Shown piece after piece: positions 12,600 through 47,195 of a stretch of DNA of 64,000 nucleotides (position 1 is its first letter; each line of letters starts with the position of its first letter). The position numbers and the translations under genes were made by a program. The stretch comes from Candidatus Bathyarchaeota archaeon (GTDB lineage: Archaea > Thermoproteota > Bathyarchaeia > Hecatellales > Hecatellaceae): the NCBI GenBank assembly GCA_052246995.1, contig JBQPWD010000002.1:75307-139306 (forward strand). Direction: 5' to 3'. The notes under the pieces were generated by a model that ran no database searches, had not been told where the DNA came from, and saw only the letters and a list, made by a program, of their open reading frames with translations.

Positions 12600-12642
12600 G
12601 CATATGCAAAAAGGAAAAATAGGCTGTTAGGGTAAGGGCGGG

Positions 12643-29006: not shown

Positions 29007-29013
29007 ACTTTTT

Positions 29014-30453: not shown

Positions 30454-30526
30454 ATTTTATTAACCTCAGTTTAGATTATGTAGTGTAGTAACTTATATAA
30501 ATAATGGTGCTGGTTACCTTATCTAA

Positions 30527-31285: not shown

Positions 31286-31353
31286 CTGAAACTTTATCTA
31301 TCTTTACTCCCAATAATTTATTTTAACTCTAAAAACATTGTGGAGGAATTTTT

Positions 31354-31971
31354 TTGTTTAGAAATTATGAGTTAAAAATTCTTGGTATTGTTGGAAGTCC
31401 AAGAGCTGAAGGTAATACAAAAATACTGGTTGAGGAGGCTTTAAAAGCTGCCGTGGAAAGTTATAGTGCAAAAACGGAGCTTATTCTTCTTGCAGGTAAA
31501 AAAATAGAACCCTGTACGGCATGCGGTAACTGTTATGCTACTGGTGAATGTAACATTAATGATGATGCGAACCTTATTGTTAAAAAGTTTTTAGAGTATG
31601 ATGGAATTATTCTTGGAAGTCCAGTATATATGGGCACGATTACAGCTCAACTTAAAGCCTTAATGGATAGAACAACAGTTTTTAAAACTCTTAAAGGCTC
31701 AAAGCTCAAAAATAAGGTTGGTGGTGGAATTGCTGTTGGTTTTGGTAGAAGTGGTGGTCAGGAAACAACACTAAGAACTATACATGATTTCTTCTTAACG
31801 CATGATATGATAGTTGTTGGTGATGGAACAAAGTATGGTGGAACTGCTGTAGCTTTTGCTGCAGGAGAAGTTAGAAAAGATGAGCTTGGATTAAAATTGT
31901 CAAGAAAACTTGGTAGAAGGGTTGCCGAAGTCGCTAGCTACATTAAGAAAGCCTCTCTAGTTGAAGGTTAA
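31354..31971 (+). CDS. iron-sulfur flavoprotein / NADPH-dependent FMN reductase-like (Isf family)
   Basis: LGIVGSPRAEGNTKIL flavodoxin-like start plus CTACGNCYATGEC cysteine cluster. Confidence 0.6.
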   Translation: MFRNYELKILGIVGSPRAEGNTKILVEEALKAAVESYSAKTELILLAGKKIEPCTACGNCYATGECNINDDANLIVKKFLEYDGIILGSPVYMGTITAQLKALMDRTTVFKTLKGSKLKNKVGGGIAVGFGRSGGQETTLRTIHDFFLTHDMIVVGDGTKYGGTAVAFAAGEVRKDELGLKLSRKLGRRVAEVASYIKKASLVEG

Positions 31972-32013
31972 TTAGTATCCTCCTTCTTAAAGAATACTCA
32001 GAGGTGGTTAAGA

Positions 32014-32268
32014 ATGTATAGAATAGTGGTTACCGCGAAAAAACAGCTTAAAGGTTACTGTCATATTCATAAGGAGGGTGACACCTTTATTGTTGAAGAG
32101 GGTCAAATTGTACGTTTAGTCAAGGGTAGTGGAATATGCATTTATGCTTTAGCTGCTATGCTTCCTTTCTTTCCAGCTTTATCCAAGGAACTTCCAGCAG
32201 ACGATTGGATGTCTGCTAAAGTTCAAGAGTATATTTGCTTAGACCCTGAAAACACCATGCTTTTTTGA
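32014..32268 (+). CDS. hypothetical small protein (84 aa)
   Basis: ORF only; three Cys; no family recognised. Confidence 0.3.
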   Translation: MYRIVVTAKKQLKGYCHIHKEGDTFIVEEGQIVRLVKGSGICIYALAAMLPFFPALSKELPADDWMSAKVQEYICLDPENTMLF

Positions 32269-32314
32269 ACTTAAAAGAGAGAAAGTTTAAGCTAAAAACT
32301 TGTAAAAATCTTCC

Positions 32315-32761
32315 CTACTCTACAGGTATCCTAAACCCTACAACCTTTTTAGGTAAAATTATCTCAAGAACCCCTAACCTAAATCTTGCTTTAGCTCTTT
32401 TGGGGTCAACTAGGGTTGGAAGTTTTATTGTTTTCTTAAATACTTCAAATTCCACCCTTTGTAATGGTCCATAAAAATCTATTCTTATACATTCTCTCAT
32501 AGGAGCCTCAACTCTCACCATACTTTCTGTTGCATTAATCTTTATATCCTCCTTTCTTACACACGGTAAATCTATTGTTATTATAATATTTTCCTCAGTT
32601 TCTGAAATATGGGTTAATGGTTGAAGTTCTTTGTTAGAAATATTTTGCATAGGAGCTTCAACTGGAAGCATAGGTCCCATAAACTCTTCAAAAAATCGGT
32701 TAATTTCTTCACGAATTTCCTCAAAAACATCAAAAACTGTTCGCTTCTTACGTGTTGACAA
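32315..32761 (-). CDS. small heat-shock protein (Hsp20/alpha-crystallin)
   Basis: EDIKINATESMVRVEA ... GVLEIILPKK alpha-crystallin domain pattern. Confidence 0.7.
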   Translation of the reverse strand: MSTRKKRTVFDVFEEIREEINRFFEEFMGPMLPVEAPMQNISNKELQPLTHISETEENIIITIDLPCVRKEDIKINATESMVRVEAPMRECIRIDFYGPLQRVEFEVFKKTIKLPTLVDPKRAKARFRLGVLEIILPKKVVGFRIPVE

Positions 32762-32773
32762 CCAAATTCCCCC

Positions 32774-33538
32774 CTACACATATATTCCTCTAAGCTCTTG
32801 TTCTTGAACTTTTCTTAAAGCTTTCATTTGTTCGCTTGTTTTACGCATAAGCTCCCTAGCTTTAATTCTAATTTCTTCCTCCTTTTCCAGTAAGCTTTTA
32901 ACATTAATGTTAACTCCAAATAAAGAATTCAAAACCTCAACTGTTGATGCTGCAGCCCCAGGATCTGGAAATTGCATATGTGATTCTGTAAGTAAAGTTA
33001 TATTTGGCTGTTGTTCATTTATACAGTCTTTTACAAGTAAAGCATAAATACCAACAAGAATTCCCTCTTCAAACGGTTGAACCTTTAATTTTTCAAGCTC
33101 ATTTTTAGCTTCAACAGTACTTCCAAAGCCGTAAACACTTGGTTTTTCTATCTCAAGCCTGTTGGGTGTTGCAATTCCTGTAACTCCCACAACAAATTTT
33201 GCATTATGTCGTTTAGCCCACAAGGTTATTGCTTTTGAAAGCTGGTAGATTGCTTGAACTGGAAATACTGTTTCGGATAAAACTACTACTAAGTTATCCT
33301 TAGCAAAAATCCTAACCTGCGGTTTAGGTTCATTTTTATGGACAATTATCATCGGTGGAAAAAGGTCAGACTCGAAATATCCCACTTCTTTCATATTTAA
33401 AGCTTGGACAATATGGGAAGTTGCTATCGGCCCAACCAATCCAACATCAGGAAGCCCAACAGTGATAACTGGTTTTTCGCTTTCAATTTTTGCTGTTTCA
33501 ACTACTGTTATCTCGTTAAATTTTATTTTCTCCAACAA
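32774..33538 (-). CDS. PAC2-family protein (proteasome assembly chaperone-like, ATP-grasp-like fold)
   Basis: ITVGLPDVGLVGPIATSHIV ... GILVGIYALL pattern typical of PAC2/PbaA-like proteins. Confidence 0.45.
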   Translation of the reverse strand: MLEKIKFNEITVVETAKIESEKPVITVGLPDVGLVGPIATSHIVQALNMKEVGYFESDLFPPMIIVHKNEPKPQVRIFAKDNLVVVLSETVFPVQAIYQLSKAITLWAKRHNAKFVVGVTGIATPNRLEIEKPSVYGFGSTVEAKNELEKLKVQPFEEGILVGIYALLVKDCINEQQPNITLLTESHMQFPDPGAAASTVEVLNSLFGVNINVKSLLEKEEEIRIKARELMRKTSEQMKALRKVQEQELRGIYV

Positions 33539-33772
33539 GCAAACACCACATAACTCAACATTTTGTGTAATCTAAGCCAAATCCAAATAAAGTTTTACTC
33601 TTCACCTAAAGAATAAAGAGAAAAGCTTATAAGCATATCTTAAATTCTAACTTTCAGTTATTCTAACCTTAAAAGTTTAAACACGTAACTTGTTTGCGTT
33701 TAAAAACCCAGTCCACCTATGCCTCATCATGCCAGTATTGTTATCATATTTTCGCGGATAATAGTTTAAGGT

Positions 33773-34312
33773 TTGGTGTTAAACATGTCCTCAACTAATA
33801 CTCAGCATGAGAAAAAAGAAGAAAAGGAAGCTGAAATTGACACATTAAAAAAACTTCTGGATGAGGAACGTAAAAAATCTGAAGATTACCTTACAAGGTT
33901 AAAATACCTTCAAGCTGATTTTGAAAACTACTTAAAAAGAGTTAAACGTGAAATTGAGGAGGCTGTTGATATTTCAAAAGGAAGACTTATTCAAAAACTT
34001 TTAGGGATTATTGACAACCTTGAGCTTGCATTAAAAGTAGGCTTAGAAAGTAAAAGTTTAGATGCCTTAATTAAGGGAGTTGAACTAACATTAAACGAGT
34101 TTAAAAACATTTTAAAAGAAGAGGGTTTAACAAGCATTAAAGCTTTAGGTGAAAAGTTTAACCCAAACCTTCATGAAGCAGTTGGACATGTTGAAGTTTT
34201 AGACCCACCTGAAGGTATAGTAGTTGAAGAGTTAAGGAAAGGATACATGTTTAAGGATAGGGTTATACGACCAAGCATGGTTAAAGTTTCAAAACTTAAA
34301 GCTAACTTATAA
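33773..34312 (+). CDS. grpE: GrpE nucleotide-exchange factor (true start probably the ATG at 33785)
   Basis: Coiled-coil N-terminus then [15 protein letters not shown] and C-terminal beta domain ([17 protein letters not shown]). Confidence 0.85.
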
Positions 34313-34329
34313 TCAGGAGGTGGAGATGG

Positions 34330-36192
34330 ATGGGTAAAATTATAGGAATAGACCTAGGAACAAGTAACTCTGCAGCAGCCGTCCTAATTGGAGGAAAACC
34401 TGTAATCATACCAAGCAGTGAAGGAGTTACCCTTTACGGAAAAGCTTTCCCATCATACGTTGCTTTTACCAAAGATGGTCAACTTTTAGTCGGAGAACCT
34501 GCAAGAAGGCAGGCTGTAACAAACCCTGAAGGCACTGTAACAGGATTTAAACGAAAAATGGGTACAGACTACAAATACAAGATTTATGGTAAAGAGTGGA
34601 CTCCTCAACAACTTTCAGCATTTCTTCTTCAAAAAATTAAGAAGGATGCTGAGGCTTTCCTTGGAGATAAAGTTGATAAAGCCGTTATAACAGTTCCAGC
34701 ATACTTCAATGATAATCAAAGACAAGCAACAAAAGATGCTGCAGCCATAGCTGGAATTGAGGTTGCAAGAATAATCAATGAACCTACAGCAGCATCCCTT
34801 GCCTATGGTTTAGATAAAGCTGACAAAGAACTAAGAATAATGGTTTTCGACCTTGGAGGTGGAACCTTGGATGTAACTTTGCTTGAATTTGGTGGGGGTG
34901 TTTTTGAGGTTAAAGCTACAAGTGGAGATACCCAACTTGGCGGGAGAGACATGGATGAAGTTCTTGTAAACTACATTGTTAACGAGTTTAAAAAGAATAC
35001 AGGTATAGACTTAAGAAAGGATAGCATGGCCATGATGAGGGTTCGTGAGGCTGCTGAAAAGGCAAAAATTGAGCTTTCAACATCAATTACAACTGAGATA
35101 AATCTTCCATTTATTGCTATGGAGGGTGGAACACCGAAACATCTTCAAATGAGTCTTACAAGGGCAACATTAGAAGAGCTTGTTAAACCAATTGTTGAAC
35201 GATGTAGAGGACCTATGATGCAGGCTTTGGCTGATGCAAAAATGAGACCTGCTGATATTGATAAGATAATTCTTGTTGGAGGACCTACAAGAATGCCTAT
35301 AGTTCAAAGATTTGTTGAGGAAGTTATGGGTAAACCTCCGGAAAGAGGTATAGACCCTATGGAGTGTGTTGCTGTAGGTGCAGCAATTCAGGCAGGGATA
35401 ATTACTGGTGAGGTTAAGGATATACTGCTTCTTGACGTTACACCCTTATCCCTTGGAGTTGAGACTCTTGGAGGCATATTTACAAAAATAGTTGAAAGAA
35501 ACACAACAATTCCATGCAAGAGAAGCCAGATATTTACCACGGCCGAAGACTTTCAAACATCTGTTGCAATTAAAGTTTACCAGGGTGAAAGGCCAATGGC
35601 TGCGGATAACGTTCTTCTTGGACAGTTTGTTTTATCAGGTATCCCACCAGCTCCAAGAGGAGTTCCTCAAATAGAGGTTACCTTTGACATAGATGTAAAC
35701 GGGATACTTAACGTTACAGCTAAAGACCTGGCTACAGGAAAAGAGGAAAAGCTGACCATAACAGCTCCTCATAGGCTTTCAAAAGAAGAAATTGAAAAAA
35801 TGGTCAAGGAGGCTGAACGTTACGCGGAGCAGGATAGAAAAAGAAGGGAGGAGGCTGAGCTCCGTAACCAAGCTGACTCACTAATTTATACCGCGGAAAA
35901 AATGAAAAGGGAGCTTAAAGAAAAGTTAACAAAAGATCAGGTTGATAAAATAGACCAAGCTGTAAAAGAGCTTAAAGATGCATTAACCGGTAAGGATGTA
36001 GAAAAAATTAAAACGAAAAACGAAGAACTTTCAAAAGTTCTTCAGGAAGTTGGAGCAACAATGTATAGACAAACTGGATATAAACAAACTGGTGCTCAAC
36101 AAGCTAACAGTAACAATCAAACAAGCAAAGCTGGTGAAAGGGTTGTTAATGCCGATTATGAGGTTGTTGACGAGGAAAAAGGTAGAAAGTAA
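34330..36192 (+). CDS. dnaK: Hsp70 chaperone DnaK
   Basis: [19 protein letters not shown] and EKAKIELS signatures; 620 aa; GGAGG Shine-Dalgarno upstream. Confidence 0.95.
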
Positions 36193-36282
36193 ACTTTTTA
36201 CTTTACATTTCCAAAGTGGAGAATAAATCTTAGCCACAAAATTTAAGAACGTTTTTCTTTACAGTTTAAAATGTGAAAGTTT

Positions 36283-37452
36283 ATGTTAGCCTTAGAAGGA
36301 ATAAGAATTCTAGATTTAACATGGCTTCTACCATATACAACACTTTTAGCAGATTTTGGCGCTGAGGTTATCAAGGTTGAGGAACCTACACGTGGAGATT
36401 ATGCCAGATGGAACCCGCCGATGATTGGAGGAATCAGCCAATATTTTCTTTCTCTTCACCGCAACAAGAAAAGTATAACTTTAAACTTAAAAACAGAAAA
36501 AGGTAGAGAAATTTTTTACAAGTTAATAGAAAAATCTGATGTGGTAATTGAAAGTTTTAGACCTGGGGTCACAAAGCGTTTAGGAGTTGACTATGAAACG
36601 GTTAAGAAGTTTAATCCAAGAATAATTTACTGTTCAGTTTCAGGGTATGGACAGGATAGTCCATACAGAGACTTACCTGGTCACGATATAAACTATGTTT
36701 CCATTGCAGGAATAGTTGGCTTAACAAGACGTCCAGGAGAACCTCCAACAATACCTGGTGTACAGATAGCTGACCTTGGTGGTGGAGTTTTAATGGCCAC
36801 CGCCTCAATACTTATAGCTTTAATTGCACGTGAAAAAACTGGTAAGGGCCAATATATCGACATAGCTATGACTGATGGGGCAATTTCCTGGTTAACAATT
36901 CCATCCTCCTTCTACTTTGTTGAAGGTGAAAAGTTTGATGTCGGGAAGGTTCCTGTTGTAGGCTATCCTCCATGTTATAACATTTATGAAACCAAGGATG
37001 GAAAGTACATTAGCATAGGATGTTTAGAGGAACGTTTCTGGAGAAACTTATGTACAAGTTTAGGAAGAGAAGACTTTATTATCCACCAGTTTGCCGACGG
37101 TGAAAAAGGTAGAGAAGTTAAAGCTACTTTACAGGAAATTTTTAAAACTAAAACTAGGGATGAGTGGTTTAAAGAACTCTCTAAAGCTGATGTATGTGTA
37201 GGCCCAGTCTACAGTTTAGATGAAACATTTAAAGATCCTCATACCCTAAAAAGGGAGATGGTTGTCGAGTTTAACCATCCTAAAATTGGAAAAACTAAGT
37301 TATTAGGCATTCCGCCAAAATTTTCAGAAACACCTGGCAAAATTAGAAGTCCAGCACCAGAACTTGGTGAACATACAAGAGAAATATTAAAAAATCTTTT
37401 AGGATTTAATGATGAGGATGTTGGTAAGCTTAAGGAGTCGGGAGTTATCTAA
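36283..37452 (+). CDS. family III CoA-transferase (CaiB/BaiF/formyl-CoA transferase-like)
   Basis: LEGIRILDLTWLLPYTTLLADFGAEVIKVEEP N-terminal signature; about 390 aa. Confidence 0.75.
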   Translation: MLALEGIRILDLTWLLPYTTLLADFGAEVIKVEEPTRGDYARWNPPMIGGISQYFLSLHRNKKSITLNLKTEKGREIFYKLIEKSDVVIESFRPGVTKRLGVDYETVKKFNPRIIYCSVSGYGQDSPYRDLPGHDINYVSIAGIVGLTRRPGEPPTIPGVQIADLGGGVLMATASILIALIAREKTGKGQYIDIAMTDGAISWLTIPSSFYFVEGEKFDVGKVPVVGYPPCYNIYETKDGKYISIGCLEERFWRNLCTSLGREDFIIHQFADGEKGREVKATLQEIFKTKTRDEWFKELSKADVCVGPVYSLDETFKDPHTLKREMVVEFNHPKIGKTKLLGIPPKFSETPGKIRSPAPELGEHTREILKNLLGFNDEDVGKLKESGVI

Positions 37453-37470
37453 ACTTCCATTTTAGCTTTT

Positions 37471-38502
37471 TTAACTGATTGAAGTCTCAAAAATTTCATT
37501 TAAGGATTGTCTTGTTAAAAACATCCCAAACTTTTTTAACGTTTCTACAATTTCATCTTGGCTAAGCTTGTAGTCGTATAGGAATTTTTCAAAAGATAAG
37601 TTTACTAGGCTGTATGGAAATCCTAACGCTTCAGCTGTAAGTTTAATAGCTTCATCTTTCCGCCTTGAAAGTTTATCAGTATTTTCACAGTATTTTTTAA
37701 GAAACTTTTCAAATAAATCGTGATTAGCTTTAACAAATTTTGTATTAGCAGCTAATGTACAACATGGAAACTTGCCAAAGATATCTTCAAAGTTATAAAC
37801 CTTAAATTTACCCCTAAAGAGGCTTAAATACGGTTCCCAGATACTTAAAGCTGAAATCTCACCATTAATAAAGCTTTCAACCATACGGTCAGGGTTATTA
37901 AAGTATCTGATTTCAACTTGAGAAGGTTCTACATCCATTGTTCTTAAGAAAAGTTTCAAACTCATTTCCATAGTTGAAAGTTCTGAACATCCATAAATTA
38001 ACTCTAAAAGTTTTTCATTTTTAACCACAAGCCCACTACCGTTAAACCCACATCCTGCAAAAATTTTTATTGAGCGTAAAAGTAAAGCATGCAGCACCTG
38101 TGTAATTAAAGGTGAGCAGGCAACATCTAAGTATCCTACAGATAAAGCATTTGTTGCCTCTAAAGCGTCATCAAAAATTTTTAATTTAACATTTATGTTA
38201 GTCTTCTCCAAATCTTTAACAGTAAGTAAAACATGAGGATATTCTGTAGCTTTAAGTATCCCAACTCTAATAAGCTTTTTAACAGGAAAAGGTGCATAAT
38301 CTAAAAGCCAGACGCGGTAAATTTTACCTCCAATATTTTTTCTAACGACTTCCCTATCTTTAAGCATTTCAGTTAAAGTCTCAGATATAGTTGAACGAGA
38401 ACATCTTAATATTTTTGATATTTCTCCTTGAAGTATACCCTCAGAACCCCTACTTTTAAGCAAACCTGAGATTTTATCCTTCATATCTATACCCATTCTC
38501 AA
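37471..38502 (-). CDS. transcriptional regulator: N-terminal winged HTH fused to a periplasmic-binding-protein-like (NMT1/SsuA-like) domain
   Basis: LQGEISKILRCSRSTISETLTEMLKDREVVR wHTH; C-terminal about 250 aa alpha/beta domain resembling substrate-binding proteins. Confidence 0.4.
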   Translation of the reverse strand: MRMGIDMKDKISGLLKSRGSEGILQGEISKILRCSRSTISETLTEMLKDREVVRKNIGGKIYRVWLLDYAPFPVKKLIRVGILKATEYPHVLLTVKDLEKTNINVKLKIFDDALEATNALSVGYLDVACSPLITQVLHALLLRSIKIFAGCGFNGSGLVVKNEKLLELIYGCSELSTMEMSLKLFLRTMDVEPSQVEIRYFNNPDRMVESFINGEISALSIWEPYLSLFRGKFKVYNFEDIFGKFPCCTLAANTKFVKANHDLFEKFLKKYCENTDKLSRRKDEAIKLTAEALGFPYSLVNLSFEKFLYDYKLSQDEIVETLKKFGMFLTRQSLNEIFETSIS

Positions 38503-38606
38503 AAGTTAGTAACCAAAATATATAAATAAGGGTTATCCGAACAAATGTTTCAATATATCGAACATTTGTTCGAAGGAGAAAAATAAAATAATAGTGGAGG
38601 TTAATA

Positions 38607-38798
38607 ATGTTAACTAAAAACTATACGGTTACAGCATTGTTTTTTCTTTTAATACTCTTAAATTACTTGATTCCTTATTTAGTGCTTAAAGACTATCCAA
38701 CCGTTTTGGGAGCATTTCTTTTCTGGTGTTTAATTACCGTTTTTGTTGCTTTACTATGTTTTACCTTGATACTAAGGTTTTGGAGGGTTGAAGGTTGA
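38607..38798 (+). CDS. small two-TM membrane protein (DUF485/YjcH-like) preceding the symporter
   Basis: 63 aa, two hydrophobic helices, 4-nt overlap with the downstream SSS transporter as in yjcH-actP pairs. Confidence 0.5.
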   Translation: MLTKNYTVTALFFLLILLNYLIPYLVLKDYPTVLGAFLFWCLITVFVALLCFTLILRFWRVEG

Positions 38799-40279
38799 TA
38801 AGTTCAAGCTTAATTTTTGCATCAATAATTGTGTACTTTGGTTTTCTACTTGCCGTTGCCTACTACGGAAGATTAAAGACTGGTAAAGGTTTAGAGGAGT
38901 TTTATCTTGCTGGAAGAAAAATTACAGGATTTATTGCCGCGTTAACTTATGCAGCTACAACCTACAGTGTTTTTATGATGGTTGGGTTAGTTGGCTTAAC
39001 CTATGCTTATGGTGTTGGTGCTTTGGGTTTTGAACTTACATATCTTTTTGCTACAGTTCTTCTTCTCACGGTTTTTGCCCCAAAATTTTGGGTTGCAGGT
39101 AAAATATGGGGGTATATGACCCCAACCCAGCTTTTAGCTGAAAGATATGAAAGTAAACTTGTTGGTATTGTAGCAGCAATTTTATGCTTAATTTTTCTTA
39201 TTCCGTATATGGCTATTCAAGGTATGGGTTCAGCTTATCTTATTGAAGCCTTATCTGGTGGAACTGTAAGTTACGAGGTTAGTTTAACATTTACCATCTT
39301 AGTTATAGCTGTTTGTGCTCTTTTAGGTGGATTTAGAGGTGTAGCTTGGACTGATACCGTTCAAGGTTTACTTATGCTTTCAACCTCTGTTTACCTTTTT
39401 CTTTACCTTCTTTATACGTACTTAGGAGGCTGGGGGAATTTTGTAAGCATGCTTGAAAATCAGTATCCAGATATGCTTACAGTTCCAGGACCGAAAAACT
39501 TTTTCACCATCCAAAACTTTGTTACGTTAACCACTCCATGGTTCTTTTTTGCCTTAACAAATCCACAAGTTTCTCAACGTCTTTTTGTTTCAAAGTCCAC
39601 TTCATCCTTGCGTAGCATGATTGTTGGCTTTTTTATATTTGGCTTTATATACACCGTGATTAGCATTTTATTTGGCTTTATGGGAGTTGTTCTTAAAGTT
39701 TCAGCTTCTCCTCCAGATAAAGCTATGCCCCTAATGTTAGAACTTTTTGTTCCACCAATTTTAGCGTTAATAGCTATGTTAGGCATCGTTTCAGCAGGAG
39801 TTTCCACAGCAAACTCTATAATGCTTTCATTGGCCTCCATGGTTGGCAGAGATATTTATGGTGTATTGGCTAAAAAACCTTCAGAAAAAGTTGAAATGCT
39901 GGTTGGTTATGCAACAATTCTTGTTGAAGCTTTAATAATCTGGATTTTTGCTATTCAAAGAGTTGGGTTGATATCCTTACTAGCTGTGATGGCTTCAGCA
40001 GGTTTACTTGTACAACTACCCGTAATAGTTGGAGCATTCTACTGGAAAGGTGGAAGCGGAATTGGAGCATGTGTAAGCATGATTAGCGGGGGTATCCTGA
40101 CAGGAGTACTCTATACTTTAGGAATATCTCCTCTAACTTTAGGTCCACCAGTATGGGGTTTAATCGTTACAACCCTACTGTTTATCTTGGTTAGCTTGAT
40201 AACAAAGAAGCCTGCCAACGCTGAAAACTTTATTTCTCTAGTTAAAAAAGAGCTTAAGGTAAAAGGATTTATAAGATAA
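38795..40279 (+). CDS. sodium:solute symporter family transporter (ActP/monocarboxylate-permease-like)
   Basis: 494 aa, 13-14 TM segments, SSF-type motifs (GRKITGFIAALTYAATTYS). Confidence 0.7.
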   Translation: MISSSLIFASIIVYFGFLLAVAYYGRLKTGKGLEEFYLAGRKITGFIAALTYAATTYSVFMMVGLVGLTYAYGVGALGFELTYLFATVLLLTVFAPKFWVAGKIWGYMTPTQLLAERYESKLVGIVAAILCLIFLIPYMAIQGMGSAYLIEALSGGTVSYEVSLTFTILVIAVCALLGGFRGVAWTDTVQGLLMLSTSVYLFLYLLYTYLGGWGNFVSMLENQYPDMLTVPGPKNFFTIQNFVTLTTPWFFFALTNPQVSQRLFVSKSTSSLRSMIVGFFIFGFIYTVISILFGFMGVVLKVSASPPDKAMPLMLELFVPPILALIAMLGIVSAGVSTANSIMLSLASMVGRDIYGVLAKKPSEKVEMLVGYATILVEALIIWIFAIQRVGLISLLAVMASAGLLVQLPVIVGAFYWKGGSGIGACVSMISGGILTGVLYTLGISPLTLGPPVWGLIVTTLLFILVSLITKKPANAENFISLVKKELKVKGFIR

Positions 40280-40701
40280 AAATTAAGTGATTAAACGTTA
40301 AACAGCTATAACTTTTCCCAACCATAATATTTTTGGTTCAATAGTTATTCTGCTTTTATGTTTGAACTTTTCAATAAGCTTAGAGTACTCTTCGACCTAA
40401 CTTAACATAACGTTATCGCATGATTTAAGATTGAAGTATTACCAGAGGGAACTCTTATCTTTACAAGTTGAGCCATCGGAAAATGGTTTAGATAATTAAG
40501 GTTTCTAAGGATATATCAATGAAAGGGGTTTGGACTAGCTTGAGTATTCTCATATCTTAAGGCTAGCTTCATCTGAATCTACGCTTTATTTACGCTGAAA
40601 CAGTAAATCTAATTTTTCCCCTCTTTTGGAGGAAGACATAAACTTTTTTATCTTCATACCAACCTATTTTTTATTGAAAATTGTAAGTAGAGGGAAAAAA
40701 T

Positions 40702-41478
40702 TTGGAATATAAAACTATTATCGTGGAACGAAAGGACAATATTGGTTTAATCACCCTTAACCGACCAGAGAAGCTTAACACCTTCACAATGCAACTAGCT
40801 CAAGAGCTTAACACAGCCTTGCTGGAGTTAGATCGGGATCCCCAGATACGTGTCATAATCATCAAGGGTGCAGGTCGTGCATTTAGTGCAGGAATTGATG
40901 TTAACGAGTTGAAAGGTAAGAATCCTATAGAAATTCGCAACTGGGTTAAGGCTATGGATGCTCACAATATAACCATTGCCAACATGAGTAAGCCGGTGAT
41001 TGCCGCTGTGCATGGTGTTGCCGTAGCTAATGGTTTTGGGTTGGCCGCTGCCTGCGACTTAACCGTTGCAAGTGATGATGCCCGTTTTGGGACAACGGCC
41101 ATAAATGTTGGTTTATACTGTTTTGGCCCTTCGGCGCCATTGTGGCGTATACTGGGCAAGAAGAAGAGCTTGGAGCTCCTACTTACTGGAGACATTATCG
41201 ATGCTAAGGAAGCGGAAAGGATTGGCTTGGTAAATAAAGTGGTACCCAGGGAGAAGCTAGAGGAAGCCGCTATGGAACTTGCCCAGAAACTGGCCAGTAA
41301 AAGTCCTATTGCTCTGCAAATGGGTAAGACTTCCTTCTATAAGATGTGGGATATGAAGTATGAGGAAGCCTTGACTTACTTAGGAGAAGTATTCACTATT
41401 CTATGTACTACTGAAGATGCTAAAGAAGGAATTACCGCGTTTCTGGAAAAACGGCAACCAGTATGGAAAGGACGTTAG
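40702..41478 (+). CDS. enoyl-CoA hydratase (crotonase family)
   Basis: IKGAGRAFSAGIDV oxyanion-hole motif; 258 aa; GC visibly higher than flanking genes. Confidence 0.8.
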   Translation: MEYKTIIVERKDNIGLITLNRPEKLNTFTMQLAQELNTALLELDRDPQIRVIIIKGAGRAFSAGIDVNELKGKNPIEIRNWVKAMDAHNITIANMSKPVIAAVHGVAVANGFGLAAACDLTVASDDARFGTTAINVGLYCFGPSAPLWRILGKKKSLELLLTGDIIDAKEAERIGLVNKVVPREKLEEAAMELAQKLASKSPIALQMGKTSFYKMWDMKYEEALTYLGEVFTILCTTEDAKEGITAFLEKRQPVWKGR

Positions 41479-42097
41479 TCAGGATGATTGGAAGGCCAAA
41501 ACAAGTGAGTTCTTCTTCATTTTCTGGCTAACATTCTTATCATAACCGTAAACATCAACCTTCTTTTGTCAAAATAAACGAAATTTTTAGGATGATTTAA
41601 AAAATTCTGCCAAATAGATCTTTGGTTGACTGGTCTAACAAGAGATGACCATTATTGCTACATTAGAAAAACTAACAGCTTAATAACGGAGAAATATCCA
41701 GAACGTCAAAACTTTCCAGTTAGATGTAAACACAAAAGCATGAAAACGTATGCTAAAAGCCTTAAAAATCTTTTTCAGAGATTTTAGTCGGAAATTCCTT
41801 AAATTGTTGTCAGCTTCAAGTTTCCTTCTTAGGCACATTTTCCTAAAGAAAATACCAACTAGTGATAAGTTAAAAAATCAGACATCGATATGGACGCGAA
41901 TATTTCACATTACCCATTCTTTAAGAACAAAGACGATTGTTTTCGTTTTTCAATGGAAAAGCTGAAAATGTTTTGAATAGAGTATATTAACGTTAAAGCC
42001 ATAAGGTAGGCTATTTGTGTAAAGGGAAGAAAGCTTATGTCTTTTGAAGTTGCAATGAGGAAAAACTTGGATAAAAATAACCGTAAAAGATAGTTGA

Positions 42098-42183
42098 CGC
42101 CGGGGACGGGATTTGAACCCGTGCGGCGCAAACGCGCCACAGGCTTAGCAGGCCTGCGCCCTACCAGGCTAGGCGACCCCGGC
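42098..42183 (-). tRNA. tRNA-Ser (anticodon GCT) with a long variable arm
   Basis: Reverse complement folds as acceptor GCCGGGG/CCCCGGC, anticodon stem CAGGC/GCCTG with loop CTGCTAA, 17-nt variable arm, T-arm ACGGG-TTCAAAT-CCCGT, discriminator G. Confidence 0.85.
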
Positions 42184-42384
42184 AATTATCCCCTAGCTAA
42201 CAAATTATTGTCACGTCTATTAGGTGGTTTGTTATCATACAAACATACATAGGTATAGATATTTTTATGTTTTTGTTTGGAGTAAAGTCAGCGCTTATAC
42301 GAGCTTTTTTTTTATAACCGCAACTCCTCAAATAGCTCTATCCAGTTTGTTGATAAGAAGCCTTATATTTCTTCGTATACTGAT

Positions 42385-42630
42385 TTAAAAGCCAACTCGG
42401 CACTCGTGGAGGTAGTTTCGTCCCATCTGTCTATCAACGGTTGAGTCATCCTTAAATGTCCAGTAAAACCAGCCGTTTCTGATCAGCTTACCCTTATACT
42501 TGGTTAAATCTTTCAGCATAGCCTTGAACTGCAGGTTGTTGAGGTCTTTGCTTTTCTCAAACTCTCCTTTAGAGCATTGAATCTTCATCCATTTAATCTT
42601 GTCCGGATTCCGTGAAAACTTGAACTTCCT
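42385..42630 (-). CDS. hypothetical ORF / gene fragment beside tRNA-Ser (frame open from 42630; ATG at 42588)
   Basis: 67-82 aa; composition differs from flanks; no family recognised. Confidence 0.25.
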   Translation of the reverse strand, partial: RKFKFSRNPDKIKWMKIQCSKGEFEKSKDLNNLQFKAMLKDLTKYKGKLIRNGWFYWTFKDDSTVDRQMGRNYLHECRVGF

Positions 42631-42764
42631 TCAACCGTTCCTACAAGTTTGACAATTTCAGCGAAGAACTCTTATTCCAACTTTTATACTGTCAGTGTAT
42701 TTATGTTTTCTCTGGAGCTAATTCCCTGTAGACCAATGATTATTTTCTCTTTTTTTGGACGCGG

Positions 42765-43025
42765 TTATCCCCAGCGGTATTTTCTTCCCGTTCCGCCTTT
42801 GGGATATAAGAACTTTACGGCTCCTATGGTACATACAAACCAGCATGAGGCACACTCGCAACAGTTCTCGTATTTTACTGCTTTGGCTTTGCCGTTTACC
42901 ATAGTTATCACTCCTCCAGGGCATACCTTGACGCAGTCTCCGCATCCTGTGCAGACTTCCGGGTCGATGTTGATGAATTCGCCGCCTGGCGTCCAGCTTG
43001 TTCCTTCCAACATTTTATACTTCAT
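42765..43025 (-). CDS. fixX: FixX-like ferredoxin-like protein
   Basis: CTGCGDCVKVCPGG plus CCECASCWFVCTIGA cysteine motifs; 86 aa; directly downstream of the fixC-like gene. Confidence 0.7.
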   Translation of the reverse strand: MKYKMLEGTSWTPGGEFINIDPEVCTGCGDCVKVCPGGVITMVNGKAKAVKYENCCECASCWFVCTIGAVKFLYPKGGTGRKYRWG

Positions 43026-44356
43026 TTTGCCACCCCCGCAAGTAACATAAGTTCGTTAAATAGCATTGGAAGTTTTCTATAGAGGAATGGTCCTATATAT
43101 CTTATTAGGGGTAGGAATCCGCTTAGTAGCAGCATTAGGTCTGAGGGTTTGGGCTGGTCAAATGCGCTTCTGACTACGTAATTGGAAATCGTGGAGCTTA
43201 CTTGGACAATTTTTTCCCCACCCATCTTTGCAATGACGTCTCTTCTCCAAGGTCTTTGCATTAGTCTCCAAATTAGTCTCTTTTTATACTTCTCCTCGTA
43301 GATTGATAGTCCTTCTTCTGAGACGTTGCCTTTGGATATGGATTCAGCCGCGGCTTCTCCTGCAAGCATTCCTGAGGTCATTGCGCCGTAAAATCCTGCA
43401 CAGGTGAAGGAGTCTAAGAATCCTCCTGCATCCCCTGCCACGAGAATCCCGTTGCCATAAGTTTTTTCCAGCATTTTCTGACCTCTGTCGTGTGCTGACC
43501 ATAGGGGTACAGTGTTCCACATCCAAGCTCTGAATTTTGCTACGTCCTCGAATCTGTCTTTCCAGAGTTGTGAGCGTAGAAACCTCTCCATGAAGATGGC
43601 GGGATTCTTCCTGCTTGAAACCAGTGCTCCCACTCCCAAGTGAAAGCTTTCTCTATAGGGAAATATCCAAACATATGAACCTATATCTGCGGGGGTTAGT
43701 GTTCCCCAGTAAACTTCAAAAGTGTCCGCCAATCCCAGTCTTTTAATTTCCCTCTCTGGTATTGTGAAGTCTAGAACCACACAATTTTCCACATTTTCTG
43801 GCGGTAGCTTTCTTCTCACTCCAGCTCTGATTCCTATTAGCGATTTTGCTCCATCAGCTGCTATCACTACTTGGGAATTGATTTTTTCCCCCTTCTCCGT
43901 TACAACTCCCTTAACGTAGCCGTTTTCCTTTATAACATCCACAACGGTTGTGTTATTTTCGAATTCGGCTCCAGCGTTCACAGCGAGCTGGGTTAGCCAT
44001 TTACAGAAATCGTAGCAGTAGATGGTATATCCCACCCGACTATCATCAGTGCTCCTAAATGTGAGTTCCAATGGCGTCTCTCCCTTTTCGTTAGCTACAA
44101 TCCACCTAACGCCCTTAAGTTCTCTCTCCAATGGAGCCTCCTTTAAAAACTCTAACCCGGGCTCAATGAATGCGTCGTGGGTCAGAATACCTCCAGAAAC
44201 AATTTTTTCTCCGGGTTCAGTTGACCTTTCAAGAAGTAAAACTTTAAGCCCCTTTTCCGCAGCGGTCTTTGCTGCAACTGCACCAGCAAACGCTGAACCA
44301 ACAACAATAACATCGTACTTCCTATTCATAAAATCCACACATCCTCTTTCATGCAA
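43022..44356 (-). CDS. fixC: FixC-like FAD-dependent oxidoreductase (ETF-quinone oxidoreductase / geranylgeranyl reductase family)
   Basis: YDVIVVGSAFAGAVAAKTAA FAD-binding fingerprint; 444 aa; followed by fixX with a 4-nt overlap. Confidence 0.7.
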   Translation of the reverse strand: MHERGCVDFMNRKYDVIVVGSAFAGAVAAKTAAEKGLKVLLLERSTEPGEKIVSGGILTHDAFIEPGLEFLKEAPLERELKGVRWIVANEKGETPLELTFRSTDDSRVGYTIYCYDFCKWLTQLAVNAGAEFENNTTVVDVIKENGYVKGVVTEKGEKINSQVVIAADGAKSLIGIRAGVRRKLPPENVENCVVLDFTIPEREIKRLGLADTFEVYWGTLTPADIGSYVWIFPYRESFHLGVGALVSSRKNPAIFMERFLRSQLWKDRFEDVAKFRAWMWNTVPLWSAHDRGQKMLEKTYGNGILVAGDAGGFLDSFTCAGFYGAMTSGMLAGEAAAESISKGNVSEEGLSIYEEKYKKRLIWRLMQRPWRRDVIAKMGGEKIVQVSSTISNYVVRSAFDQPKPSDLMLLLSGFLPLIRYIGPFLYRKLPMLFNELMLLAGVAK

Positions 44357-44562
44357 GAGAGCATAGTGGTTATAGAACTTTTTCCCCTTTTAAAAATGTG
44401 ATACCCAAACATTGTTGTAGTAACTCCTACCCTCCTGGAGTCAGTGGAATCCCGGCAAAGCCTAGAGGCTTCTAAAGGGTTCAAATCCAAAACTTCATCA
44501 ATAGCCTTTGCAACCTCATTGGTATTCCCAGTTTCTGGATAATAAACAAATAATACTTTCAT
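44326..44562 (-). pseudogene. possible flavodoxin-like N-terminal fragment overlapping the fixC start
   Basis: Only the first 25 aa (MKVLFVYYPETGNTNEVAKAIDEVL) resemble a flavodoxin start; the remainder does not; 78 aa is too short for a flavodoxin. Confidence 0.25.
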
Positions 44563-44740
44563 TTTTCACACCTCACTAAATGAATATTTAAACATTATAC
44601 GTTTAAGCTTAATGAAACATGCATGCCTAAAAAATAGAAAGGATGAAGTTTCCTTTACGCTTCGCCCTTTACTGGTGTTTTTTAAAGTTTTAGAGAACAT
44701 TTTTGTAGACTTGTTGGTAGTTATTTAATGGTAGCGAGAT

Positions 44741-45739
44741 ATGAATTTTGCTGTTCAGGTTAACAGACTTGTAAAGGTTTACGATGGTAAGGTTAGGGCT
44801 TTAGATGGGGTGGATTTAACTGTTGAAGTTGGAGAAACCTTCGCGTTTCTGGGCCCAAATGGTGCTGGAAAGACTACACTTATACGTATTTTGACAACAC
44901 AAATCAAGCCTACTTTTGGGGAAGCATATGTTTTTGGGTTAAACGTTGTTCGTCAAGGTAGCAAGGTTCGGAAGCTGATAAGCTACGTTCCACAAGAAGT
45001 AAGCGTTTGGACAGACATCAGCGGCTATGAAAATCTTCTGATTTATTCTAAAATTTTCGGTTTACCATCTGATGTGAGAGAGAAAATAATTGATGAAGTT
45101 TTAGAATATATGGGTTTAACCAGTGTAAAGAATAATCTGGTTCGGACATATTCTGGCGGGATGATTAGGAGACTTGAAATAGCCTGTGCCATGCTTGTTA
45201 AGCCAAAAATCATGTTTTTAGACGAGCCAACTATTGGTTTGGATCCTGCTGCCCGAAAAATTGTCTGGGAAAGGTTAAACGTTTTTAAGAAGGAGTACAA
45301 TGTAACCATATTCTTCAACACACATTATCTAGATGAGGCTGACTTGTATGCAGACAAGATATCTATAATTAACCAAGGAAAGATAGTAGCAAAGGGAACA
45401 AGCGAAGAGTTAAAGCATTCGTTGGGCGGTGAAATTATCACATTTACCTTTGAAAAAGCTGAATTTAAACCCGAATTAGCTCAAGAATTTATAAAATTAT
45501 GTTTTGTGAGGGATGTCTTCGTTGAAGATGGAAGTTTAAGTGTGTTTGTTGATGATGCTGAATCCGCGTTGTTCAGTTTAATGAACATCTTTAAGGGTAA
45601 AGGCATATCTGTAGGAAAGGTTTCTATTACCAAGCCAACTTTAGATGAAGTCTTCCTTAAATATGCTGGCACACGGCTTGAGGAAGGAGGTAAATTTAGT
45701 GAGGTTAGGCATAGGCGATATAGAATTAGGAAGGGGTAA
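44741..45739 (+). CDS. ABC transporter ATP-binding protein (ABC-2 type) with C-terminal extension
   Basis: Walker A GPNGAGKTT; signature YSGGMIRRLEIA; Walker B IMFLDEPT. Confidence 0.85.
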   Translation: MNFAVQVNRLVKVYDGKVRALDGVDLTVEVGETFAFLGPNGAGKTTLIRILTTQIKPTFGEAYVFGLNVVRQGSKVRKLISYVPQEVSVWTDISGYENLLIYSKIFGLPSDVREKIIDEVLEYMGLTSVKNNLVRTYSGGMIRRLEIACAMLVKPKIMFLDEPTIGLDPAARKIVWERLNVFKKEYNVTIFFNTHYLDEADLYADKISIINQGKIVAKGTSEELKHSLGGEIITFTFEKAEFKPELAQEFIKLCFVRDVFVEDGSLSVFVDDAESALFSLMNIFKGKGISVGKVSITKPTLDEVFLKYAGTRLEEGGKFSEVRHRRYRIRKG

Positions 45740-45742
45740 AAC

Positions 45743-46507
45743 ATGATAGAAGACTTTAAAAACATGCTAGTTATGGTAGAGCTGGAATTGAGAAGACTAC
45801 GCCATGACAGAACTGAAATTTACCTTAGGGCTATTCAACCAGTTCTATGGTTAGTCATATATGGATCCATTATGAGCAGCGTTAGGGCTATACCGACAGG
45901 TGGAGTACCATATACAGACTTCATAACTCCAGGAGTTATGATTCAGACAGCAACTTTCGTCAGCATATTCTATGGGTTGATGATGATTTGGGAGCGTGAG
46001 TCCGGTATCCTAAAGAAACTGCTTGTTACTCCAACTTCAAGATACTTCATGGTGATAGGAAGGTCCATGGCTTCAGGTGTAAGAGCCCTTTTTCAAGCAA
46101 TATTAATTCTACCCATAGCCCTAATAATTGGTGTACGGCTTATACTTAATCCGATATACGTCATTCTAGCTTTTACAATAATTTTCTTCGTCTCAGGCGG
46201 ATTCGCAGCACTATCAATACTTGTAGCCTCAATCATAAAAACTCGTGAAAGATTTATTGGCATAGGCCAAGCCATAGTTATGCCCCTATTTTTTGCAAGC
46301 AACGCCCTGTATCCAGTTCAAATGATGCCTCCAATCCTAAAAGAATTATCAACATTCAACCCGTTAAGCTATGTCATTGATGCAGTAAGAGGCTTGCTAA
46401 TTACAGGAGATGTTTCAAATCTCCTACTGGATGTAACTGTGATAATAATTTTCAACATCATAATGTTTGTTACTGCATCAATAAGTTTCAGCAGAATAAT
46501 AGAATAA
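45743..46507 (+). CDS. ABC-2 family transporter permease
   Basis: 254 aa, six TM helices, immediately downstream of the ATPase. Confidence 0.7.
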   Translation: MIEDFKNMLVMVELELRRLRHDRTEIYLRAIQPVLWLVIYGSIMSSVRAIPTGGVPYTDFITPGVMIQTATFVSIFYGLMMIWERESGILKKLLVTPTSRYFMVIGRSMASGVRALFQAILILPIALIIGVRLILNPIYVILAFTIIFFVSGGFAALSILVASIIKTRERFIGIGQAIVMPLFFASNALYPVQMMPPILKELSTFNPLSYVIDAVRGLLITGDVSNLLLDVTVIIIFNIIMFVTASISFSRIIE

Positions 46508-46683
46508 AAAGCCGAGATGAACATTTTATGAAGCCTTATAAACCACCTATTGCTCAGCTACTAAATTTAGGCTTAAAAACTTCCTCTTTTCAAATTACAT
46601 AGTTAAATTAGATTTATGATGTGGTTTTCTGATGGTTCAGGTAAGGTAAACTGTAAATACTGCTTAAGCTTTAATAATTTTCG

Positions 46684-46905
46684 GTGGTGTCTTTGGCTGG
46701 AAAGAGAATTAAAAAGCCTCAAAAAAAGGTTTCGGCAACTCACATTATAAGCTGTAATGTTCATGAAGGTGAACCTTCACGAACAGCTTTACTCATCATT
46801 TACGATAATGGGGATGTTAATGTTCGCTGTTCGTGTGAAAAATGTGAACTCTGTAAGTATGGTGAACTTATAAAAACCCAACCTAAAACTTCAACTCAAA
46901 CCTAA
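46684..46905 (+). CDS. small Cys-rich hypothetical protein (possible zinc ribbon)
   Basis: CNVH...CSCEKCELC; 73 aa; GTG start; beside tRNA-Pro. Confidence 0.25.
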   Translation: MVSLAGKRIKKPQKKVSATHIISCNVHEGEPSRTALLIIYDNGDVNVRCSCEKCELCKYGELIKTQPKTSTQT

Positions 46906-47116
46906 ACTTTAAACCAGTTTTTCTCTTTACTAAGGTAAAAGCGGCTTTATTTCCAGTTTACATTTTTTCAATTTTTGTTGCGTGTTTCACTACTTTTCTT
47001 ATTAACCCTTTTTTCTTTAATCATTCAACTGTTATACATCTAATCAAAGCTGATCCATTGGAGAGGTAGAAATCCTCTACGCTTAAAATTTCTGAAAATA
47101 ATTTAACCAAAAAATA

Positions 47117-47195
47117 TGGTGGGGCCGGCCGGATTTGAACCGGCGATCTGGCGGGCCCAAGCCGCCAAGCGTAGACCAGGCTAGCCCACGGCCCC
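47117..47195 (-). tRNA. tRNA-Pro (anticodon TGG), CCA encoded
   Basis: Reverse complement has acceptor GGGGCCG/CGGCCCC, anticodon stem GGCGG/CCGCC with loop CTTGGGC, T-arm GCCGG-TTCAAAT-CCGGC, then ACCA. Confidence 0.85.

Follow-up and report, generated by a model that had tools for sequence, protein, structure and literature searches.

A 64,000-nucleotide stretch of the genome of a Candidatus Bathyarchaeota archaeon (positions 75,307 to 139,306 of contig JBQPWD010000002.1; hereafter the window) carries a 6.8-kb variable zone (40284-47116) between an SSF transporter gene and a gene for tRNA-Pro, with a native tRNA-Ser gene in its middle and three conspicuously G+C-rich protein-coding genes on either side of the latter. 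We conclude that two unrelated foreign units have very probably settled in this zone by horizontal transfer, i.e., a 1.78-kb cassette with a flavoprotein and a ferredoxin gene that appears to be a recent copy from an Asgard archaeon of the Jordarchaeia/Freyarchaeota and a crotonase-fold gene that seems to be a separate, older acquisition of bacterial, Chloroflexota-like ancestry. What the encoded proteins do is much less certain than where they come from and how the zone is built. An earlier note on this DNA had interpreted positions 40.3 to 44.6 kb, which make up the left two-thirds of the variable zone, as a single, partly decayed island around the tRNA-Ser gene that would contain an incomplete FixABCX module. 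The genes and signals that carry our argument are the following (G+C content at third codon positions abbreviated as GC3):

40702-41478, plus strand: crotonase-fold (ECH_1) gene of bacterial type, 258 amino acids (Pfam ECH_1, E = 1e-66); G+C 44.8%, GC3 43.6%, GC3 z-score 4.2

42654-44427, minus strand: imported 1.78-kb cassette comprising promoter/leader, flavoprotein gene, ferredoxin gene, and ca. 110 bp of 3' flank

42765-43025, minus strand: 86-amino-acid FixX-like ferredoxin (Pfam Fer4_7 and related) with a 4-bp overlap with the flavoprotein stop; G+C 48.3%, GC3 52.9%, GC3 z-score 6.6

43022-44329, minus strand: 435-amino-acid FAD flavoprotein of the FixC/ETF-QO/geranylgeranyl-reductase superfamily; G+C 45.1%, GC3 42.7%, GC3 z-score 3.9

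44388-44396, minus strand: TATA-like box, TTTTTAAAA, located ca. 60 nucleotides before the ATG at 44329 and part of the imported block

The origin of the flavoprotein/ferredoxin pair is most directly visible from alignments to Jordarchaeial contigs. Positions 42654-44427 match four of these loci (L001 to L004) with 86.7% nucleotide identity over 1796 columns in a single ungapped-like blastn block that extends ca. 110 bp beyond the 3' end of the ferredoxin gene and ca. 100 bp upstream of the flavoprotein start, and no other part of the window aligns to Jordarchaeial contigs. Three further loci (L005 to L007) align over the genes only, with 79% to 81% nucleotide identity. The open reading frame (ORF) of the flavoprotein formally spans 43022-44356 on the minus strand, and the ATG at 44329, which yields 435 amino acids as in all homologs, is probably the true start. 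Upstream of it, the TATA-like TTTTTAAA box has positional counterparts in L001 and L005 (TTTTTAAAT) and, in looser form, in L007 (ATATAAAT), and we predict that it serves as the promoter of the pair.

A search of 5.8 billion proteins with the flavoprotein returned a tight group at 74% to 95% amino acid identity, after which values fall to 43%. The named members of this group are assigned to Candidatus Jordarchaeaceae, Jordarchaeia, Jordarchaeum, Freyarchaeota, Freyrarchaeum guaymaensis, and, in one case, "Lokiarchaeia"; Jordarchaeia-group members belong to the kingdom Promethearchaeati, and Bathyarchaeota belong to Thermoproteati. In a neighbor-joining tree (unrooted in practice), the two Bathyarchaeota flavoproteins form a shallow tip nested in the Jordarchaeia clade. 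The nearest Jordarchaeial relatives of the pair share 95% amino acid and 86.7% nucleotide identity with it, and no flavoprotein above 96% amino acid identity was found by the same search outside two Bathyarchaeota metagenome-assembled genomes (MAGs). With 45% G+C in the window, the pair resembles its counterparts in the donors (45% to 47%), the backgrounds being 39% to 43% G+C in the donors and 36.7% in the host. Atypical composition, syntenic absence from the fetched part of a sister contig (see below), and phylogenetic nesting in a distant lineage, the general hallmarks of horizontal gene transfer, were thus all observed.

The four copies of the pair align over 1565 nucleotides with zero gaps, and comparison to the nearest donor (L001) revealed 105 synonymous versus 22 non-synonymous codon differences; the pair thus shows no decay but is intact and subject to purifying selection. 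Across the Jordarchaeia clade (L001, L005, L007, and L046), it adjoins one or two 3-hydroxyacyl-CoA dehydrogenase (3HCDH) genes, and no gene for an electron-transfer flavoprotein (ETF) was found around it at five loci of this clade within flanks of 1.5 to 10 kb on each side. No ETF Pfam family was detected in any ORF of at least 80 amino acids in the 64-kb window either. Given that the donor loci have no ETF genes nearby, this module normally exists as an "orphan FixCX," which is hence not a sign of decay, and by its gene content the pair appears to be a complete two-gene module. We note that the Jordarchaeial loci encode a second, paralogous flavoprotein (463 amino acids, with Trp_halogenase-like matches) and a 92-amino-acid ferredoxin ca. 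8 kb from the pair (L001 969-2645; L005 1-926; L007 1-258), the latter with 49% to 55% identity to the ferredoxin of the window.

The second foreign unit, the crotonase-fold gene, encodes a member of the crotonase superfamily whose match to PF00378 (ECH_1) scores 225 bits (cutoff 27) and covers residues 9-257 of 258. Beyond an identical MAG protein, its best relatives share 76% to 81% amino acid identity (72% to 73% at the nucleotide level), and the related contigs have 46% to 54% G+C. All relatives that are named or have a genomic context are bacterial, including Dehalococcoidia (L025), Chloroflexota, and Deltaproteobacteria, and at one locus (L029) the relative adjoins a bacterial RF-1/PCRF release-factor gene. 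These similarities support a bacterial ancestry and an acquisition distinct from, and older than, that of the cassette.

Membership in this fold does not make the protein an enzyme of the eponymous activity. The canonical catalytic glutamates of this fold are Glu144 and Glu164 in the numbering of rat enoyl-CoA hydratase. Gly113 and Ala133 of the window protein align with the catalytic glutamates of 5ZAI, 5XZD, and 2PBP, and the first of these sites is glycine in 121/121 homologs, most of which stem from metagenome contigs, while the second is alanine in 117 of them and glycine in the other four. With both catalytic glutamates absent, "enoyl-CoA hydratase" is therefore a fold assignment and not a demonstrated activity, and the gene probably encodes something other than a plain enoyl-CoA hydratase. 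Among NCBIfam models, PRK08139 matches best with 264 bits (below the cutoff of 313), the best PDB match of the protein is the 3-hydroxypropionyl-CoA dehydratase of M. sedula (5ZAI, 202 bits), and it has a VGLxC...P segment that we take to resemble those of ECHDC3-type proteins. By these similarities, it would fall into a large ECHDC3/PRK08139-like subfamily of doubtful annotated activity. An HpaB-family protein gene (29014-30453) and a family-III CoA-transferase gene (36283-37452) are located 10 kb and 3 kb upstream, respectively, with conserved copies of both in the sister contig. 4-Hydroxybutyryl-CoA dehydratases are members of the HpaB family, and the two genes may represent a metabolic context for a crotonyl-CoA-type enzyme.

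The three foreign genes also stand out by base composition. Across the window (36.7% G+C overall), the 47 other genes average 36.6% G+C (sd 2.4) and a GC3 of 27.6% (sd 3.8), and the crotonase-fold, ferredoxin, and flavoprotein genes are the top three of 50 by GC3 (z = 3.9 to 6.6). The high-G+C signal is broken up into these three genes with AT-rich spacers and a short "stub" ORF between or around them, and the local peak at the tRNA-Ser gene is the tRNA itself. All features named in the earlier note are present where it had placed them, and the nonuniform composition that it had perceived is real, though the raised G+C content that it had attributed to a block around tRNA-Ser applies to the three genes and neither to the stub (33% to 36% in 300-bp windows) nor to the spacers (31% to 38%). 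The remaining features of the variable zone are the following:

40284-40701: AT-rich spacer, 31.3% G+C, the left edge of the variable region directly past the conserved SSF transporter gene

41479-42095: AT-rich spacer of 617 bp, 31.9% G+C, with only short, stop-riddled frames in six-frame translation

42096-42184, minus strand: intron-less tRNA-Ser(GCU) gene (ARAGORN; Rfam 59 bits)

42185-42653: spacer adjoining the downstream junction on the host side, 37.7% G+C, non-homologous to the donor loci

42385-42588, minus strand: unclassifiable 67-amino-acid ORF without Pfam or NCBIfam match (PHROGs noise, E = 0.11)

44326-44562, minus strand: 78-amino-acid "stub" ORF that spans the upstream insertion junction and is hence chimeric

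44428-44740: spacer, 35.1% G+C

44741-46507, plus strand: ABC-2 transporter operon (ATPase and permease) of native type, with 80% to 84% amino acid identity to many Bathyarchaeia/Thermoproteota MAGs

47117-47195, minus strand: tRNA-Pro(UGG) gene, the right anchor of the variable region and 100% identical to its counterparts in the sister contig (L008) and a more distant relative (L035)

The long spacers indeed lack recognizable content, as had been proposed, with no Pfam, NCBIfam, or PHROG family beyond noise, no Rfam match at E <= 1 other than noise, and no further copies across the window and 47 fetched loci. A scan for sigma-70 promoters and terminators, which is ill-suited to an archaeon, gave counts at chance level, and the 67-amino-acid ORF has no similarity to a small ORF in the inter-tRNA spacer of L008.

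Several observations anchor the zone in a Bathyarchaeota chromosome. Proteins 100% identical to the crotonase-fold protein (MGP3704125.1), the flavoprotein (MGP3704128.1), and the ABC ATPase (cluster of P0276) are found in a Candidatus Bathyarchaeota MAG, and a second Bathyarchaeota MAG (75-kb contig) encodes the same crotonase-fold protein and, three accession numbers later, a 99.8% identical flavoprotein, so that the accession spacing between the two is equal in both MAGs. The rest of the window encodes typical archaeal or TACK functions such as PolB, deoxyhypusine synthase, Snf7/Vps4, CofC/CofD, CDP-archaeol synthase, and A-ATPase subunit D, and the best-matching relatives of the SSF transporter directly to the left are encoded by Bathyarchaeia MAGs.

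The sister contig from a Bathyarchaeia MAG (L008; 142 kb and equal to metagenome contig L033 at 99.9%) is collinear with window positions 28858-40283 at 84% nucleotide identity, and ten flanking orthologs share 82% to 92% amino acid identity, but this collinearity ends at 40283. Past the SSF stop codon, the common ground is limited to the tRNA-Ser gene, the tRNA-Pro gene, and a CCG-domain gene from 47451 onward. Between its SSF and tRNA-Ser genes, L008 instead carries an MFS transporter gene and a different ABC pair (45% and 27% identity to the ABC pair of the window at the matching place), and both the crotonase-fold gene and the flavoprotein/ferredoxin pair are absent from the 10 kb downstream of its SSF gene. 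The distance from tRNA-Ser to tRNA-Pro ranges from ca. 130 bp in L035, whose SSF transporter is 75% identical, over ca. 900 bp in L008 to 4.9 kb in the window. The relatives hence differ in the cargo carried on either side of tRNA-Ser. Another indel of this tRNA-anchored zone is a 4.7-kb insert of L008 (15862-20552) between the tRNA-Pro and CCG-domain genes, which encodes an aldehyde:ferredoxin oxidoreductase (AOR), a pyridine-nucleotide-disulfide oxidoreductase, and a ferredoxin; the corresponding spacing in the window is 235 bp. The ABC-2 operon of the window is not foreign at the phylum level. It recurs as a discrete block (10001-11767 of L030 to L032) with ca. 80% to 81% nucleotide identity in Thermoproteota contigs of very different G+C content (30% and 40%) and with unrelated neighborhoods, adjoins an IS605-type OrfB/TnpB gene in L030, and may itself be mobile within the phylum.

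The tRNA-Ser gene itself is native and orthologous to the copy of L008 (14772-14872). The latter has a 12-nucleotide, intron-like insertion in the anticodon loop that is missing from the window copy, and the only other changes are five substitutions that all fall into the variable arm and its junction with the T-stem; ARAGORN fails to call the tRNA-Ser copies of both L008 and L035. Contrary to what is expected of an integration target, neither 21-nucleotide half of the gene recurs in the window when up to three mismatches are allowed, genes for an integrase, a transposase, or other mobile-element functions are missing from 40 to 47 kb, and the only repeats detected there are short ones at the level of chance. 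A candidate att remnant at 44477-44488, a 12-nucleotide perfect inverted match to the T-arm of tRNA-Ser, was rejected as a chance match because its surroundings form no T-stem and match neither a tRNA nor any Rfam family. Because there is no integrase beside tRNA-Ser and no duplicated tRNA half, tRNA-targeted integration is not demonstrable, and the association with tRNA genes is that of a permissive variable spot rather than of site-specific integration. The cassette may instead have entered by illegitimate or otherwise unmarked recombination without a tRNA-targeting integrase. The single Phage_integrase-family gene of the window (60606-61667, 353 amino acids) lies 16 kb from the region and is unrelated to it; this gene, which could encode XerA or the integrase of another element, is located 2.2 kb from a 94-nucleotide, probably intron-bearing tRNA-Gln(CUG) call (63875-63968).

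The 78-amino-acid ORF at the upstream junction had been considered, with low confidence, a G+C-rich flavodoxin stub and part of the Fix module. Codons 46-78, its last 33, belong to the imported promoter/5' leader and are homologous to non-coding leader DNA of L001, and codons 1-45 lie in DNA that is non-homologous to the donor and carry MKVLFVYYPETGNTNEVAKAI at the start of the ORF. Since its C-terminal part is donor-like leader, the ORF overlaps the flavoprotein start (ATGA) by accident. Flavodoxin is the sole family matched by this ORF in all three libraries, with weak matches below the cutoffs (E = 0.005 for Pfam, 0.008 for NCBIfam, and 0.012 for PHROGs; 17.1 bits against a cutoff of 27.5 for Flavodoxin_3, residues 5-38), and a phmmer search of 1.84 billion representatives retrieved only the ORF itself. 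It is possible that codons 1-45, now joined to imported DNA, are a remnant of a host flavodoxin-like gene. However, the idea that the insertion split such a gene is unsupported by a search for a flavodoxin remainder beyond the insertion, with none found in six-frame translations of 42185-42764 and the other spacers, and no flavodoxin gene lies upstream of the ABC orthologs in the three relatives inspected. Chimeric, without homologs, and with 33% to 36% G+C, the stub does not qualify as a G+C-rich component of a Fix system.

Regarding the proteins of the cassette, the ferredoxin has two complete 4Fe-4S motifs (CxxCxxCxxxCP and CxxCxxCxxxC) and is 85% to 92% identical to its Jordarchaeial partners. 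Its residues 23-86 align with residues 27-92 of the EtfX/FixX-like T. maritima protein 7KOE_D, up to the last residue (E = 2.5e-8). Size, gene position, cysteine motifs, and C-terminal tail are hence those of a FixX-type protein, an assignment that is based on the 7KOE_D alignment and not on a curated FixX model. The placement of the flavoprotein is more ambiguous. Its top NCBIfam match, TIGR02032 (GG-red-SF), points to geranylgeranyl reductases (GGRs) with 139.1 bits (below the cutoff of 158.8), and the FixC-type model PRK10157/NF007542 covers only residues 14-200 in the N-terminal half with 92 bits against a cutoff of 610. In the PDB, FixC of T. maritima (7KOE_C, 105 bits) is closely followed by the GGR of T. 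acidophilum (3OZ2, 99 bits), and a Foldseek search with the AF2 model (pLDDT 81.6) gave query-normalized TM-scores of 0.73 for FixC and 0.71 for GGR. Judged by sequence and predicted fold, the flavoprotein thus seems to be equidistant from both. Its GxGxxG motif reads GSAFAG, and of the PxxYxWxFP cavity motif, YVWIFP is present with the upstream proline displaced by three residues (PADIGSYVWIFP). The AF2 model further features a long, low-confidence C-terminal helix of ca. 40 residues (ca. 395-434) rich in hydrophobic residues, which could be a membrane or partner contact.

Taken together, we envision that a Jordarchaeial 1.78-kb cassette with its own TATA-like promoter was copied recently into the Bathyarchaeota chromosome, where it would have stayed intact and been selectively maintained, after a crotonase-fold gene had been acquired earlier from a bacterial (Chloroflexota-like) source. 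Insertion of the cassette would have left the junction-spanning ORF behind, the first 45 codons of which are perhaps of host origin. In this scenario, the flavoprotein might receive low-potential electrons at its FAD from the ferredoxin subunit and then reduce a lipophilic acceptor, which would be a quinone or a C=C bond of the prenyl/enoyl type. Since the donor pair always adjoins 3HCDH genes, the redox balance of acyl-CoA metabolism/beta-oxidation would be the most likely setting. A bolder and rather doubtful proposal is that the pair represents a distinct, uncharacterized family of ferredoxin-coupled flavoprotein reductases that is neither FixC nor GGR, works without ETF and together with 3HCDH, and is functionally so autonomous that a 1.8-kb copy with its promoter could become fixed after transfer from an Asgard archaeon to a Bathyarchaeon. 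The marks of such a family may be GSAFAG, a serine for the catalytic cysteine of GGR, a clade-specific CYDFC motif, and the long low-confidence C-terminal helix.

A number of observations weigh against parts of this scenario. The pair exceeds the local background by 4 to 6 G+C points in the donors, too, so that part of the excess is intrinsic to the genes. Substitutions polarized with two outgroups show no significant A+T drift on the Bathyarchaeota branch (28 GC>AT versus 24 AT>GC; P = 0.2 compared to the donor branch), i.e., amelioration and the residence time of the pair are not supported by this test. The taxon labels of the contigs rest on MAG binning, and the syntenic region is covered by one close sister contig only (L008, equal to L033). 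On the functional side, the flavoprotein has neither PF26311 nor PF21162, the FixC/ETF-QO Pfam domains seen in more distant FixC-like homologs. The position of the catalytic cysteine of GGR is a serine (KIVSGGIL) in the window protein and seven Jordarchaeial relatives, as opposed to cysteine in the GGR-type matches, and the RxxFD FAD-contact motif is replaced by CYDFC (CxxxC; residues ca. 105-109), which is kept across the Jordarchaeial clade.

Among the alternatives, the one that fares best is that assembly or binning stitched 1.8 kb of Jordarchaeial DNA into a Bathyarchaeota contig. All sequences come from metagenome assemblies, and the block indeed has sharp boundaries and foreign composition. 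However, the segment lies within a 260-kb contig, flanked on either side by genes of Bathyarchaeia type, and the second MAG with its 75-kb contig has a 99.8% identical yet non-identical copy with the same gene spacing. Moreover, the closest Jordarchaeial DNA compared is only 86.7% identical, with no co-occurring donor template seen, and we therefore regard such an artifact as improbable.

The single island of the earlier note, according to which FixC, FixX, and a flavodoxin stub would be the leftovers of a full FixABCX system that had been targeted to tRNA-Ser, fares worse. It would account for foreign genes flanking a tRNA gene, for long ORF-free spacers, for a FixX-like ferredoxin next to a flavoprotein with FixC of EtfABCX as its best PDB match, and for the weak flavodoxin motif of the stub. 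Yet, the two units differ in donor and strongly in divergence (95% amino acid and 86.7% nucleotide identity compared to at most 81% and ca. 72%), and the native tRNA-Ser gene and AT-rich spacers lie between them. Donor homology comprises exactly two genes and ca. 100 bp on each side, nothing was lost given that all five loci of the Jordarchaeia clade have no ETF in their available flanks, and the stub owes its C-terminal third to imported promoter DNA. In addition, there is neither a duplicated tRNA-Ser half nor an integrase within 16 kb, and we saw no donor or intermediate with an etfAB-fixCX-flavodoxin operon and no att-like repeats bounding 40.3 to 44.6 kb. An incomplete or decayed FixABCX system is similarly at odds with intact frames, the excess of synonymous codon differences (105 versus 22), donor loci without ETF, and a flavoprotein that is equally close to GGR. 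We thus find this explanation hardly credible, though some of its components stand: Composition, relatives, and sister comparison agree on the horizontal acquisition of the G+C-rich genes, and the surroundings of tRNA-Ser are a variable spot among relatives. Likewise, the block is not conserved in synteny, with the divergence of L008 after 40283, and the phylogenetic comparisons that had been suggested point to Jordarchaeia as donor lineage of the flavoprotein (by neighbor-joining nesting) and to Bacteria for the nearest relatives of the crotonase-fold gene.

Even less likely is the reverse direction of transfer, in which the pair would have arisen in Bathyarchaeia and spread to Jordarchaeia. 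This idea draws on a tree that is unrooted in practice and on uneven MAG sampling, but the Bathyarchaeota copies (99.8% to 100% mutual identity) are a shallow tip in a Jordarchaeial clade spanning 74% to 95% that has a conserved 3HCDH context in four lineages, and the composition of the pair fits the Jordarchaeial and not the Bathyarchaeota background. Least plausible of all are native genes with a G+C content raised by amino acid composition or the expression-linked codon bias of redox enzymes: While the pair is 4 to 6 G+C points above local background in Jordarchaeia as well, and its G+C content is at the upper end of the window range at first and among the highest at second codon positions, GC3 is the most deviant measure (z = 3.9 to 6.6), the nearest relatives lie in another archaeal kingdom and in Bacteria with identities far above any vertical relationship, and both the absence from 10 kb of the sister contig and phylogenetic nesting contradict it.

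Elsewhere in the window, a second stretch of raised G+C content (932-7665; 42% to 44%) owes its excess mainly to codon positions 1 and 2 (GC3 0.29 to 0.36) and contains a small ORF, a PIN-domain gene (1191-1604; toxin-antitoxin-like), and a 1114-amino-acid MG2 (alpha-2-macroglobulin-type) domain protein followed by coiled-coil and Ig-like proteins. At 11655-13767, Snf7 (ESCRT-III-like) adjoins Vps4 (MIT and AAA domains) as a Cdv-type cell-division pair, which TACK archaea are expected to have and which fits an assignment to Bathyarchaeota.

Per se, horizontal gene transfer of this kind is ordinary among archaea and would not surprise specialists of archaeal genomics; mildly novel are the uncharacterized flavoprotein clade and its recent mobility from Asgard archaea to Bathyarchaeia. 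Nevertheless, the cassette offers a clean case of recent gene flow between archaeal kingdoms (from Asgard to TACK/Bathyarchaeia) that is resolved to within a few bases, and a recent Asgard import and an older bacterial acquisition coincide at one tRNA-flanked variable spot. It is also a datum on how archaea of sediments and hot springs swap small metabolic modules without recognizable mobile-element machinery. For genome annotation, two notes of caution are that "FixC-FixX without FixAB" need not mean a broken Fix system and that not every ECH_1 protein is an enoyl-CoA hydratase. With its link to 3HCDH genes in Jordarchaeia, the ferredoxin-linked flavoprotein clade is a candidate for biochemical study.

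Compared to known systems, the pair most resembles the FixCX/EtfCX subunits of T. maritima (7KOE chains C and D) in its combination of a flavoprotein gene with a gene for a small 4Fe-4S ferredoxin-like subunit. FixC is the best sequence and fold match of the window flavoprotein (105 bits; TM-score 0.73), which has Ser-Gly-Gly at the Met-Gly-Gly position of FixC, and the ferredoxin shares the C-terminal end of 7KOE_D with its ...YPxGGxGxxYRxG-type tail. Unlike in FixABCX systems, etfAB/fixAB are found neither in the window (ORFs of at least 80 amino acids) nor in the available flanks of the donor loci. The flavoprotein further differs from FixC by YxWxFP at the position of FLYTN, by CYDFC at RxxFD, by the coverage of only its N-terminal half by the FixC model (far below the cutoff), and by the missing PF26311 and PF21162 domains.

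Archaeal GGRs and their ferredoxin-linked paralogs (arCOG00570; 3OZ2 and S. acidocaldarius 3ATQ) are a similarly good match, with GG-red-SF as the top NCBIfam hit, near-equal scores of 3OZ2 (99 bits; TM-score 0.71 to 0.77) to those of FixC, and shared YxWxFP catalytic-cavity and GD motifs. Archaeal GGR paralogs with adjacent ferredoxin genes have been described as a structural cluster of unknown function (PMC10821996). According to the same review, conservation of Cys47 extends to all archaeal GGRs, and the S. acidocaldarius enzyme requires this residue for catalysis (PMC10821996). By contrast, this residue is replaced by serine in the whole clade of the window protein, which also scores below the 158.8-bit cutoff, has the proline of PxxYxWxFP shifted, and carries CYDFC for RxxFD as well as GSAFAG for GxGxxG. 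The crotonase-fold protein, in turn, shares the full-length ECH_1 fold with canonical enoyl-CoA hydratases (rat ECH 1DUB and 5ZAI) but differs from them in that both catalytic glutamates are replaced in the protein and its subfamily. Finally, the locus as a whole is similar to tRNA-gene-targeted islands in that foreign genes lie near tRNA genes in a zone that differs among close relatives. It is set apart from them by the absence of a nearby integrase, of a repeated tRNA-Ser half, and of other mobile-element genes, and by its composition of two units of different origin.

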